Of a stretch of 64,000 bases of DNA, positions 5,857 through 58,312 are shown in pieces. A program made the position numbers and the translations under genes. How positions within the stretch are numbered: position 1 is the stretch's first letter; each line of letters starts with the position of its first letter. The notes beneath the pieces are model-generated. The model saw nothing but the letters and a program-made list of their open reading frames with translations. It ran no database searches and was not told where the DNA came from. This DNA is from Escherichia phage vB_EcoM-fFiEco06, in sequence record NC_054914.1, one strand, 5' to 3'.

Positions 5857-6075
5857 TTATTTCTCTAATATAAAATAAAAATCATCATCTGTTAAATGAT
5901 ACCTGTAATTTAATTCTACACCATTAGATTTAAAAGCGGTATCATACGGATTTTCTGGATCAATATCAATGTCAAGAGCTAAAACTTCCCTGAGATACAT
6001 TTTAAGTAAATAGGGAATAGCTTCAACTTCAGGTATTTCTTCCAAGAATCCGGAGAGGTTAATCGTTAGCCTCAT
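5857..6075 (-). CDS. Hypothetical small protein
   Basis: 72 aa ORF immediately upstream of gene 55. Confidence 0.4.
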
Positions 6076-6616
6076 ATAAAAAATCCAAACTAGGAGAATC
6101 GTCTACAACACTTTTCTTTTCAGCCCCCGGTGTTCTATAGGTCGATTCTTCGTAATGCGTCATTTTATCGTAGATGTCTTGAATAAAAGTTTCATCTACT
6201 AACGCAACCATATCGTCGTCACGGCTGTCATAGACATTGTGAACGAAGTAACTGTATTTCTTTGCAACTTCCTTACGTTCTTTTTTAATACGTTGGACGA
6301 ATGCATTAAAACAAGCTTGAGTTATATATGCATGCGGGTTTTTATATTTCGTTTCATCAAAATTGTGAAGCCCCTTAATAGAAGCTTCTATACCATCTGC
6401 AATCATTTCTTGTTTCCAAGACTGGGTGTATCCTGAAAAGTTGAAACGTTTAGATAAGCCTTCTGCAATAAGCATAATGGCTAATCCGATAGTATCATTC
6501 TGACGAACTACTTTATTTGGGTCTTTATTATTTGCTAATTCTGTTTTCCAATCAATAATAGCTTGTAAAAGCTCTTTATTGTTTACGTAATTATATTTAG
6601 GCTTAGTTTCTGACAT
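6059..6616 (-). CDS. 55: Late-transcription sigma factor gp55
   Basis: Matches T4 gp55 ([23 protein letters not shown]...); start taken at the Met giving 185 aa. Confidence 0.88.
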
Positions 6617-6694
6617 TTTCACCTCTTAGCTCAATTCATAGATCTATTATATCATAATATTTGAAGATCTATCTTAAAGCATAGAGGATATCAG

Positions 6695-31710: not shown

Positions 31711-32241
<531 letters not shown>

Positions 32242-41371: not shown

Positions 41372-42196
41372 TTAGATATTTGACCAGACTTTGTTTGCAG
41401 AGAAACGTTTTCCTTTTGAAACGAACTGCTGAAGTGGCATTAACACAACGTTCGCCCAGTCTTTCGGGGCGATTTCAACAAGGCTACCCATAATATTACC
41501 AGGTATATATGCCTTAATCATTTGGTCTGCACCCCTAAATCCTTTCACTTGACTCCAATCAATTTTTAATTTCGTTTTATTAGTAATAGTAGGTGTATTT
41601 GCATATTGCTTTAAAAGCTCTTCTAGAAACTGTTGACGAGCTTTAGGTGGAATATAGTGCAAGTTCAATCCGTACATTAAATTATGCTTACCTAAACCAA
41701 GGTAAATTATCAAAGGAAATTTATCCCAGTAAGGAAGAGTTTCCTTGTGTTTAGCATCATAAGCAAAAGCATATATTCGTCCCGGCTGCGGGCGAACAAC
41801 TTTATGTCCTTTTACTTGCTTAATAGTTTCAGCAAACCACTTTCTGGTTTTATTATTAATTGCTGCGCCTTCATTACGAATTTTATCGCGCAATGTTTGT
41901 CTGAATGAATTTATCATAAGCAGTTGTCTTTCTTGCTTATTGAGTTTATTCATTGGTTTTGATTCAAGCTTTTGAATCTTTTCAGCCGTTTTAATTCCTG
42001 AAGCATATTTTGACATTGCTGAAGTAAACGTAGAGTATTTGATTCCTCTTTCTTCAGCAAATTGCTTTCCTGTCATTCCTTTTGCTTTGGCCTTTTTATA
42101 TTCAAGACCTATCTGAATCCATTTCTTTTCGTTTAATGATTGCTTAACCTTTGGAACTTGGGGAGTGCTTTCATTAATTATTTGAAAAATAGCCAT
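41372..42196 (-). CDS. 2: DNA end protector gp2
   Basis: 274 aa, basic; synteny. Confidence 0.8.
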
Positions 42197-42648
42197 TATG
42201 CCCCCTTAAAGCCAAGAGCTCGTAATCCATCTTCTGTCAGAATTCTAAATTTTATTCCACGCTTTTCAGCTAAAGCTTGCGCTGCTTTCCATTTGTCGGT
42301 ATTAACAGAATATGTATAAATTTCATTCATAAATCTTTTCTTCGCTGCGGTTGTTAGATGTGCTGGTTTAACTGGTGGTTGTGTTTCTTTTTTAGGTTTT
42401 ATTTCAATAAAAAATTCTTGTCCAGAAGAATCTTTCATCCAAATATCCATGAAGTATCTACGTTTTTTCCCTTCTGCATTACAAAAATAAGGAATTACTG
42501 CTGTTTCACTACCCCATGCAATAATTTCTGGATTTTTATCTAACCATTCAAAAAAGAATTTTTCCCAATTTGATCTATACGTAATTTTTTTAGGGTCACC
42601 TCTATACTTTGATATATTTTTAGGAACCCATTTTCCAGAATATGCCAT
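42196..42648 (-). CDS. 4: Head completion protein gp4
   Basis: 150 aa; synteny. Confidence 0.8.
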
Positions 42649-42659
42649 TGGATTCTCCT

Positions 42660-42667
42660 TATAAATA
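42660..42667 (+). promoter_or_regulatory. Late promoter TATAAATA for gene 53
   Basis: Plus strand TATAAATA about 29 nt upstream of the gene 53 ATG. Confidence 0.65.
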
Positions 42668-42674
42668 GATAATA

Positions 42675-42682
42675 TATTTATA
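42675..42682 (-). promoter_or_regulatory. Late promoter TATAAATA for gene 4 (overlapping, divergent)
   Basis: Plus-strand TATTTATA reads TATAAATA on the minus strand, upstream of the gene 4 start at 42648. Confidence 0.5.
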
Positions 42683-42695
42683 AACAGGAGGGCCC

Positions 42696-43286
42696 ATGCT
42701 CTTTACATTTTTTGATCCGATTGAATATGCGGCCAAAACGGTGAATAAAAACGCGCCGACTATTCCTATGACAGATATTTTTAGAAACTATAAAGACTAT
42801 TTTAAACGCGCTCTTGCGGGATACCGCTTACGTACTTATTATATCAAAGGTTCACCACGCCCGGAAGAATTAGCAAATACTATATATGGAAATCCACAGT
42901 TGTATTGGGTTTTATTGATGTGTAATGATAATTATGACCCGTATTATGGATGGATTACTTCACAAGAAGCAGCTTATCAAGCATCTATACAAAAATACAA
43001 AAATGTAGGTGGAGACCAAATAGTATATCATGTGAATGAGAACGGTGAAAAATTTTATAATTTAATATCATACGATGATAATCCATATGTTTGGTATGAT
43101 AAAGGTGATAAAGCTAGAAAATATCCTCAATATGAAGGAGCACTTGCTGCTGTTAATACGTATGAAGATGCTGTTCTTGAAAATGAAAAACTTCGTCAAA
43201 TAAAAATAATAGCAAAATCAGACATTAATTCATTTATGAACGACCTTATACGTATAATGGAGAAATCTTATGGAAATGATAAGTAA
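42696..43286 (+). CDS. 53: Baseplate wedge protein gp53
   Basis: 196 aa; first plus-strand late gene; TATAAATA late promoter upstream. Confidence 0.85.
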   Translation: MLFTFFDPIEYAAKTVNKNAPTIPMTDIFRNYKDYFKRALAGYRLRTYYIKGSPRPEELANTIYGNPQLYWVLLMCNDNYDPYYGWITSQEAAYQASIQKYKNVGGDQIVYHVNENGEKFYNLISYDDNPYVWYDKGDKARKYPQYEGALAAVNTYEDAVLENEKLRQIKIIAKSDINSFMNDLIRIMEKSYGNDK

Positions 43287-56854: not shown

Positions 56855-58312
56855 ATGATTGAATTAAAAGAGTTACCTTTTGTTGATAGCGTTCCTGACG
56901 AAGGTCAGGAACGTATTTCATGGATTAAAAATGGTGAAGAAATATTAGGAGCTAGTACTAAGTATGGAAATGATGGATCAATGAATAGACCAATTGTTTC
57001 CGTGTTTAAAAACGTCGAAGTTCTTGATGAAAATGTGGGAATTCTTAAAACTGCCATTGAAACATCACAGAAAGATATTAAAACAATTCAAGGAGTTTTA
57101 GATGTATCAGGAGATATAGAAGCACTATCGCAGATCAGTGTTAATAAAAATGACATATCGAATTTAAAGACACTTACCAGTGAACACACTGATATATTAA
57201 CTGGAACTAATAATACAGTTGACAAAATTATTGCTGATATAGGTCCATTTAATGATGAAGAAAACTCTGTTTATAGAACAATTAGAAATGATTTATTGTG
57301 GATTAAACAGGAATTAGGACAATATTCTGGCCAAGACATTAACGGTCTTCCTGTTGTTGGTAATGCTAGCACAGGAATGAAACACAGAATAATAACAAAT
57401 AGTACATTATTATCTTCACAGGGCATTCGTTTAAGCGAATTAGAAAATAAATTTACTGAATCTGACGTAGGATCATTAACTGTTGAAGTTGGTAAATTAC
57501 GTGATGAACTTGGTAATAAACCAGTAGATTTTGGGCCAAATATTTATAATAGATTAAACACCATAGATGATAAACAAACTTTAATAATTTCTGATATAGC
57601 AGAAATTAAATCTTCTATTGGATACCCAGAAAATGTTTCTATAATAACAGAAATTAATAATAACAAAAGTAGCATTGAAGCTATTAATAATGAATTAAAT
57701 CAGAGTGAAGGTGTTAAACAGCGCTTAACGGCTATTGAAACTTCTATAGGTTCAGATGATATTCCTTCTAGTATTAAAGGAAAAATTAAAAATCACACAA
57801 CTTCTATTGAGTCTTTAAACGGAATTGTTGGTGAAAACACTTCGTCTGGTTTAAGAGCGAATGTTTCGTGGTTAAATCAAATTGTTGGAACTGACTCCAG
57901 CGGAGGACAACCGTCTCCTTCTGGATCTCTATTAAATAAAGTTTCAGTGCTTGAAGGAGAAGTTTCAGTTTTAAACAATAATGTTCAAAATATACAAGTT
58001 GAAATAGGAAATAATAGAACAGGAATTAAAGGTCAAGTTATTGAACTTACTTCACTTATAAATGGAAATAATCCTGACGGATCAACTGTTGAAGAACGAG
58101 GATTAACTAATTCTATAAAAACGAATGAAACCAACATTGCGGCAGTCACACATGAAGTAAATACAGCTAAAGACAATATATCCTCTTTACAGAGCAGCGT
58201 TCAAGCTCTACAAGAAGCAGGTTATATTCCTGAAGCTCCAAAAGATGGCCAAGCTTACGTTCGTAAAGACGGCGAATGGGTACTACTTTCTACCTTTTTA
58301 TCACCAGCATAA
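56855..58312 (+). CDS. wac: Fibritin (whisker antigen control)
   Basis: 485 aa coiled coil ending in foldon [27 protein letters not shown]. Confidence 0.9.

Follow-up and report, generated by a model that had tools for sequence, protein, structure and literature searches.

Late transcription in bacteriophage T4 starts from a simple promoter, the box of which lies at positions -13 to -6 (PMC1524935); it lacks a -35 element and has, downstream of the box, an A/T-rich stretch that melts (PMC1524935; PMC2988020). In the transcription bubble, gp55 binds the flipped non-template bases at -12, -9 and -8 (PMC7892883), while the gp45 clamp activates promoters of one polarity only, the polarity being set by the strand that carries the loading site (PMC2988020). 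Fifty T4 late sites have been listed, not all of which have been verified in vivo (PMC2988020). In the bidirectional promoters of Escherichia coli, steric competition becomes visible only at strong firing (PMC12825309). T4 also possesses hairpins that block the translation of long early transcripts and hold a late promoter within them, as described for e, soc, 49 and I-TevI (PMC3014915), and the same paradigm is documented for genes 25 and 26 (PMC2988022); in the case of gene e, the mRNA is early and the protein late (PMC9697503 Table S2).

The window analysed here is a stretch of 64,000 nt from Escherichia phage vB_EcoM-fFiEco06 (NC_054914.1). It was identified by sequence search as that of a Tequatrovirus, the 1.2 kb at the site under study matching fHoEco02 and PYps11T at 100% identity, and hundreds of T4-like records at 95-99%. 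Gene 4 (minus strand, ATG at 42648) and gene 53 (plus strand, ATG at 42696) are separated by a 47-bp spacer, and the junction reads, from left to right, CAT-tggatt-CTCCT-TATAAATA-gataata-TATTTATA-aac-AGGAGGG-ccc-ATG; at its right end, TATTTATA is followed by aacAGGAGGgccc and then by the gene 53 ATG. It thus contains two exact TATAAATA boxes on opposite strands, 7 bp apart, the pair spanning 23 bp (Table 1). The spacer is base for base that of T4 (NC_000866/AF158101, 77338-77384; T4 coordinate = window coordinate + 34689), and the flanking genes are also the same. In the GenBank record of a close relative (MZ726795), both boxes are annotated as T4-late promoters with reference to the T4 genome review. 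Promoter features are absent from the T4 RefSeq and GenBank records, a full-text literature search returned nothing specific on the late promoters of genes 53 and 4, and the supplements of the paper that uses the 50 T4 late promoters do not list these sequences. The 4/53 pair is an ordinary feature of T4-like phages, already known and already catalogued; the additions made here are the breadth over which its crossed layout is conserved, a catalogue of three paired junctions and an argument based on packing.

The product of gene 4 shares up to 100% identity with Tequatrovirus gp4 records and 98.7% with that of the T4 record MT984581. It also matches the Pfam TnsA-like endonuclease N-terminal domain (PF08722, E 1.7e-21), and the record of one relative names the protein head completion nuclease. 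Downstream of gene 53 lies gene 5, and on the other side genes 2, 3 and 1 are located beyond gene 4. On a crude ORF map, the 4/53 junction is the main switch from minus- to plus-strand genes in the 64-kb window, in which two other small switches were seen. The sequence-only reading, in which two opposed boxes within 25 bp were placed between a head-completion and a baseplate gene at the point where transcription changes strand, was borne out by the exact motif matches, by the PHROG and Pfam hits of the two genes and by the map.

Table 1. Features of the 4/53 junction in the window, and the three paired late promoters of a T4-like genome
Feature	Position	Strand	Basis or layout
Gene 4, head completion/closure protein, 150 aa	42196..42648	-	PHROG head closure 1.8e-62
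Shine-Dalgarno AGGAG of gene 4; abuts complement of gene 53 box	42655..42659	-	sequence
Imperfect inverted repeat CTCCT-TATAAATA, 7-nt loop, TATTTATA-aac-AGGAG	42655..42690	.	mirrored Shine-Dalgarno and box elements
Late promoter box TATAAATA (predicted), gene 53 (gene 5 downstream)	42660..42667	+	exact match; 28 nt to ATG
A/T-rich 7-bp spacer GATAATA, both predicted starts inside	42668..42674	.	sequence
Late promoter box TATAAATA (predicted), gene 4 (genes 2, 3 downstream)	42675..42682	-	exact match; 26 nt to ATG
One-mismatch box TATAAACA, overlaps minus-strand box	42679..42686	+	motif scan
Shine-Dalgarno AGGAGGG of gene 53	42686..42692	+	sequence
Gene 53, baseplate wedge subunit, 196 aa	42696..43286	+	Pfam Phage_gp53 1.5e-101
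4/53 pair			crossed, 7-bp spacer; 47-bp gap
inh (-)/segE (+) pair	L099:14021-14042 = T4 NC_000866 112021-112042		crossed; 49-bp gap
26 (-)/51 (+) pair	L099:18450-18461 = T4 116450-116461		overlapping back to back; 50-bp gap

The box is not enriched in the window, in which 13 exact 8-mers were found (10.8 expected) together with 216 one-mismatch matches (214 expected). Eight of the 13 exact sites are intergenic, though about 90% of the window is coding, and 7 of these 8 are located 13-36 nt upstream of a same-strand ATG. The complete Tequatrovirus genome of KNP1, about 7% of which is non-coding, gave a similar picture, with 24 of its 33 exact sites being intergenic and 21 sites lying 13-40 nt upstream of a same-strand ATG at a median of 26 nt. 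The raw count is unremarkable, and the placement of the boxes is non-random. At the 4/53 junction, the distances from box to ATG (28 nt for gene 53 and 26 nt for gene 4) correspond to the genome-wide norm (median 26, n=21). Given the intergenic base composition, the probability of finding both exact boxes in one 47-bp spacer by chance is about 2e-5, and shuffling of the spacer itself produced both boxes in 15 of 200,000 cases. The 7 bp downstream of the plus-strand box (GATAATA) and of the minus-strand box (TATTATC) are each 6/7 A/T, in agreement with the A/T-rich stretch of T4 late promoters. The one-mismatch box TATAAACA is probably not a working promoter, since transcripts from it would begin 3-4 nt upstream of the ATG and have no Shine-Dalgarno (SD) sequence in their leader; it was given no weight because matches of this kind occur at chance level.

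Two other groups of exact boxes in the window were noted. One TATAAATA at 57541-57548 (minus strand) is antisense within the plus-strand ORF 56855-58312 and far from any minus-strand gene; it either arose by chance or marks a late start in antisense. Two tandem exact boxes at 32219-32226 and 32232-32239 (minus strand) are located upstream of ORF 31711-32205 (minus strand), the translation of which is T4 lysozyme (gene e), and they agree with what has been published for the leader hairpin of e, which holds two late promoters.

A homologue of gp55 is encoded in the window at 6059-6622 on the minus strand (PHROG late sigma transcription factor, 3.7e-69). The gene 4 box is the sole canonical late box on the minus strand between 40324 and 42682, a region covering genes 4, 2 and 3, and the gene 53 box is the sole one on the plus strand between 42660 and 45096, covering genes 53 and 5; both operons are late and essential. 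In a published time course of T4, an isolate other than the phage of the window, genes 3, 4, 53 and 5 show late timing of the mRNA as well as of the protein (PMC9697503 Table S2). A sigma-70 consensus scan and a MotA-box search revealed no early or middle promoter near the junction, and Rfam gave no match over 42300-43100. In the same T4 dataset, the mRNA of gene 2 (41372-42196 of the window, minus strand) is classed as middle and those of its neighbours 4 and 3 as late (PMC9697503 Table S2); inside gene 4, no promoter consensus was seen that would explain the earlier onset of gene 2.

In every testable respect, the 4/53 pair corresponds to T4-type late promoters. We have high confidence that each box is functional as a late promoter, and the motif, the geometry, the conservation described below, the sole-box status and the published timing of the T4 late mRNAs together argue that each strand of the 47-bp gap probably carries a working late promoter of the gp55 type, the two being crossed between divergent late operons. 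The assignment of the boxes as late promoters by the sequence-only reading thus stands, on account of their exact match, their canonical distances to the ATG, their being the only box of each operon and the late T4 mRNAs. The minus-strand box would drive genes 4, 2 and 3 leftward, and rightward transcription from the plus-strand box would take in genes 53 and 5 and probably others.

When the boxes are set at -13 to -6, the plus-strand start is predicted at about 42672-42674 and the minus-strand start at about 42668-42670, so that the order from left to right is plus-strand box, predicted minus-strand start, predicted plus-strand start and minus-strand box, i.e. a crossed arrangement. Since the 7-bp spacer contains both predicted starts, each transcript would pass through the box of its partner, as had been expected when the two promoters were said to initiate through each other. 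The predicted RNAs diverge from starts a few bp apart and do not overlap, and each predicted leader of about 20 nt holds the complement of the partner box just upstream of its SD sequence. The regions predicted to be melted, about 42661-42675 for the plus-strand promoter and about 42667-42681 for the minus-strand promoter, do overlap. Because gp55 reads its box as unwound non-template DNA, the two open complexes would have to melt overlapping DNA, and only one orientation of polymerase could then be accommodated at a time on each DNA copy. Mutual exclusion of the two polymerases would be the result. The proposal that the two promoters could be coupled or interfere with each other is speculative, interference being plausible. 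Since the clamp works with one polarity, it may also be speculated that clamps of each orientation would serve one member of the pair.

The crossed arrangement may be understood from the space available. A T4 late promoter consists of no more than an 8-bp box with the start about 6 bp downstream, and the usual distance of about 26 nt from box to ATG leaves a leader of about 20 nt with its SD sequence; two such units arranged back to back take up about 68 bp. In a gap of 47 bp, boxes with standard leaders must pass each other; once they are crossed, both predicted starts land in the 7-bp spacer and each leader comes to contain the complement of the partner box. We infer that the crossing is a consequence of packing and not a selected regulatory device, with the exclusion of one polymerase by the other arising as a side effect.

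In KNP1, only three pairs of opposite-strand boxes were found within 70 bp of each other when A or T was allowed at -13. Going by the annotation of T4 and a crude ORF map, we take them to mark the three divergent late-late junctions 4/53, inh/segE and 26/51, and the gaps at all three are 47-50 bp. The inh/segE pair consists of TATAAATA on the plus strand, a 6-bp spacer and the complement of AATAAATA for the minus-strand promoter. At 26/51, the two boxes share TATA within a 12-bp palindrome, TATTTATAAATA, and are 17 and 21 nt from their ATG codons; this is an alternative packing of two late promoters. As two promoters are accommodated in 50 bp at 26/51 with their boxes uncrossed, packing does not make crossing obligatory, and the strong retention of the crossed form at the gp4 junction could reflect selection beyond compactness.

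Of 500 Tequatrovirus records, 489 carry the 66-bp junction (42640-42705) with 100% identity, whereas over the 1.2 kb around it only 119 of 502 close records reach an identity of at least 99%; judged by these identities, the junction is more conserved than the adjacent genes. Crossed pairs of exact or near-exact boxes also occupy this junction in Mosigvirus, Moonvirus, Dhakavirus, Lazarusvirus (with Acinetobacter hosts), Bragavirus (with Proteus hosts), a Klebsiella phage and Krischvirus, with the spacer sequence differing in these groups but the layout being kept. In distant genera, the gp4-directed box is on the far side and the baseplate-directed box abuts the gp4 SD sequence. Variant boxes include AATAAATA in Moonvirus and GATAAATA in Krischvirus, and the juxtaposition TATTTATA-AGGAG(G) is also present in Mosigvirus, Dhakavirus and Klebsiella phage Roth68.

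An IMG/VR scan with gp4 alignment gave 80 loci at 42-72% identity, which were pooled with the named phages. A pair was called crossed when its cores were at a plausible distance from both start codons, with 6-nt margins and a shuffle control. By this definition, the crossed TAAATA/TATTTA core pair was present in 50 of the 81 loci with a divergent neighbour, compared with 0.4% in shuffled spacers, and the back-to-back layout in only 3 loci. The pooled loci have a median gap of 47 bp and a spacer of 1-31 bp between the cores. Retention of the crossed layout down to about 42% gp4 identity was not found stated in the accessible literature. At the gp4 junctions of the KVP40-like Vibrio phage K575 (L013:1133-1200) and the Aeromonas Angelvirus AsFcp_2 (L015:1138-1191), the motifs are arranged back to back as TATTTAG/CTAAATA. 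CTAAATA is the late motif reported for Aeromonas phage Aeh1 (PMC1524935). In AsFcp_2 the two motifs abut as TATTTAGCTAAATA, and the gap in K575 is 68 bp, the size needed for two uncrossed units.

Folding in silico suggested that RNA crossing the junction on either strand can form a hairpin over the SD sequence of the downstream gene through box/box and SD/anti-SD pairing, with energies of -14.6 kcal/mol for RNA of the gene 4 sense and -16.6 kcal/mol for RNA of the gene 53 sense. The late transcript of gene 4, the predicted start of which is in the loop, is without the 5' arm and folds at only -1.4 kcal/mol; the probability that the gene 4 SD sequence is paired is 0.79 in the read-through RNA versus 0.33 in the late transcript. 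In each of the 8 genera compared, pairing of the SD sequence was higher in the read-through RNA than in the late transcript, and in 7 of the 8, 7% or less of the shuffled-5'-arm controls reached the observed pairing. Read-through RNA of the inh/segE junction likewise gave SD-pairing hairpins (-14.5 and -10.7 kcal/mol). The palindrome was also considered as a transcription terminator, which was rejected because no U-run follows the stem on either strand, and as a protein operator, which was rejected because the repeat is fully explained by the mirrored promoter and SD elements. A separate hairpin, GGAGGGC/GCUCUUU (-6.6 kcal/mol), is predicted in the gene 53 late leader at 42687-42704 (plus strand), where it pairs the SD sequence and spans the AUG; it might damp gene 53 translation. 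This hairpin was flagged as terminator-like by a consensus scan.

It is conceivable, though doubtful, that the palindrome acts in addition as a translational gate, with read-through RNA hiding its ribosome-binding site and late RNA that starts beyond the 5' arm being translated. The difference in energy between the folds, the excess of SD pairing across the genera over most shuffled controls, and the precedents of e, soc, 49 and I-TevI (PMC3014915) and of genes 25 and 26 (PMC2988022) are all in favour of such a role, as is the T4 record, which places repEA and repEB on the minus strand upstream of gene 4 with no terminator-like site between them and gene 4. However, such pairing follows of itself from the mirrored arrangement of the SD, box and start-codon elements, and the stability of the folds relative to their composition is weakly distinguished (z = -0.94 for the gene 4 sense, -2.06 for the gene 53 sense). 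A role for the hairpin is made doubtful by the late onset of T4 gene 4 mRNA, unlike that of gene e, since little read-through RNA then seems available to silence. No sigma-70-type or MotA-type promoter was detected on the minus strand in the approximately 2 kb upstream of gene 4, and no plus-strand late box is present upstream of gene 53 anywhere in the window. In Mosigvirus, moreover, the anti-SD sequence is 19 nt from the box and the helix is broken.

Somewhat less likely still is that the crossed overlap was itself selected as a regulatory device, in which exclusive binding would balance or anticorrelate the expression of head-completion and baseplate genes, or would partition the gp45 clamps by orientation; in the latter variant, one of the two operons would fire whichever way a clamp faces. 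The crossed form has been kept in very distant relatives while the sequence and length of the spacer drifted, which is consistent with this proposal, and steric competition is real at strongly firing bidirectional promoters (PMC12825309). Yet other layouts work equally well, namely the T4 26/51 palindrome and the back-to-back TATTTAG/CTAAATA motifs of the KVP40-like and Angelvirus phages, and a core spacing ranging from 1 to 31 bp argues against precise mechanistic coupling. A broader proposal, in which the crossed pair would be an ancient selected module of the T4 superfamily, combining a two-way DNA switch set by the facing of the gp45 clamp with an RNA hairpin silencing read-through translation, appears about equally unlikely. 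That only one of the motifs is a promoter, the other being chance or hitch-hiking A/T-rich sequence, is very improbable even though the listed T4 late sites are not all verified (PMC2988020), in view of the low joint chance of about 2e-5, the canonical distance of both boxes from their genes, the conservation of the boxes as a pair across genera, the status of each as the sole canonical box of a late structural operon and the late onset of both flanking mRNAs in T4.

With two tightly packed late promoters as the preferred explanation, the pair would have the routine task in T4 biology of launching the 4-2-3 head/tail-completion operon leftward and the 53-5 baseplate genes rightward. Of modest value as a natural test bed, it has two perfect gp55 promoters, open complexes predicted to overlap and an activator, the sliding clamp, that possesses polarity, and it is suited to asking directly whether late gene dosage is shaped by steric competition or by the orientation of the clamp.

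The closest described counterpart is the pair of T4 late promoters at the same 4/53 junction (about 77349-77371 of NC_000866), the window being from a different Tequatrovirus isolate. Within T4, the inh/segE pair resembles 4/53 in being crossed with one box per strand, while 26/51 differs in that its starts flank the boxes, those predicted at 4/53 lying between them. The bidirectional promoters of E. coli with a shared pseudo-symmetric -10 element (Warman, Grainger and colleagues; PMC12825309) have in common with the 4/53 pair a short, symmetric, A/T-rich sequence, divergent transcription and, as we infer for 4/53, exclusive binding. They differ in that the 4/53 pair has two separate 8-bp boxes 7 bp apart, which are read by gp55 rather than sigma-70 and have no -35 element. 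Furthermore, starts in the E. coli type are beside or within one shared element, whereas those predicted here are between two boxes, which places 4/53 outside that type; the T4 26/51 pair does fit the shared-element form. Finally, the 4/53 palindrome is like the T4 hairpins of e, soc, 49 and I-TevI in its predicted SD pairing and in having a late start in the loop, but its stem is composed of two promoters and two SD sequences in mirrored order, and the mRNA of gene 4 is late whereas that of gene e is early.
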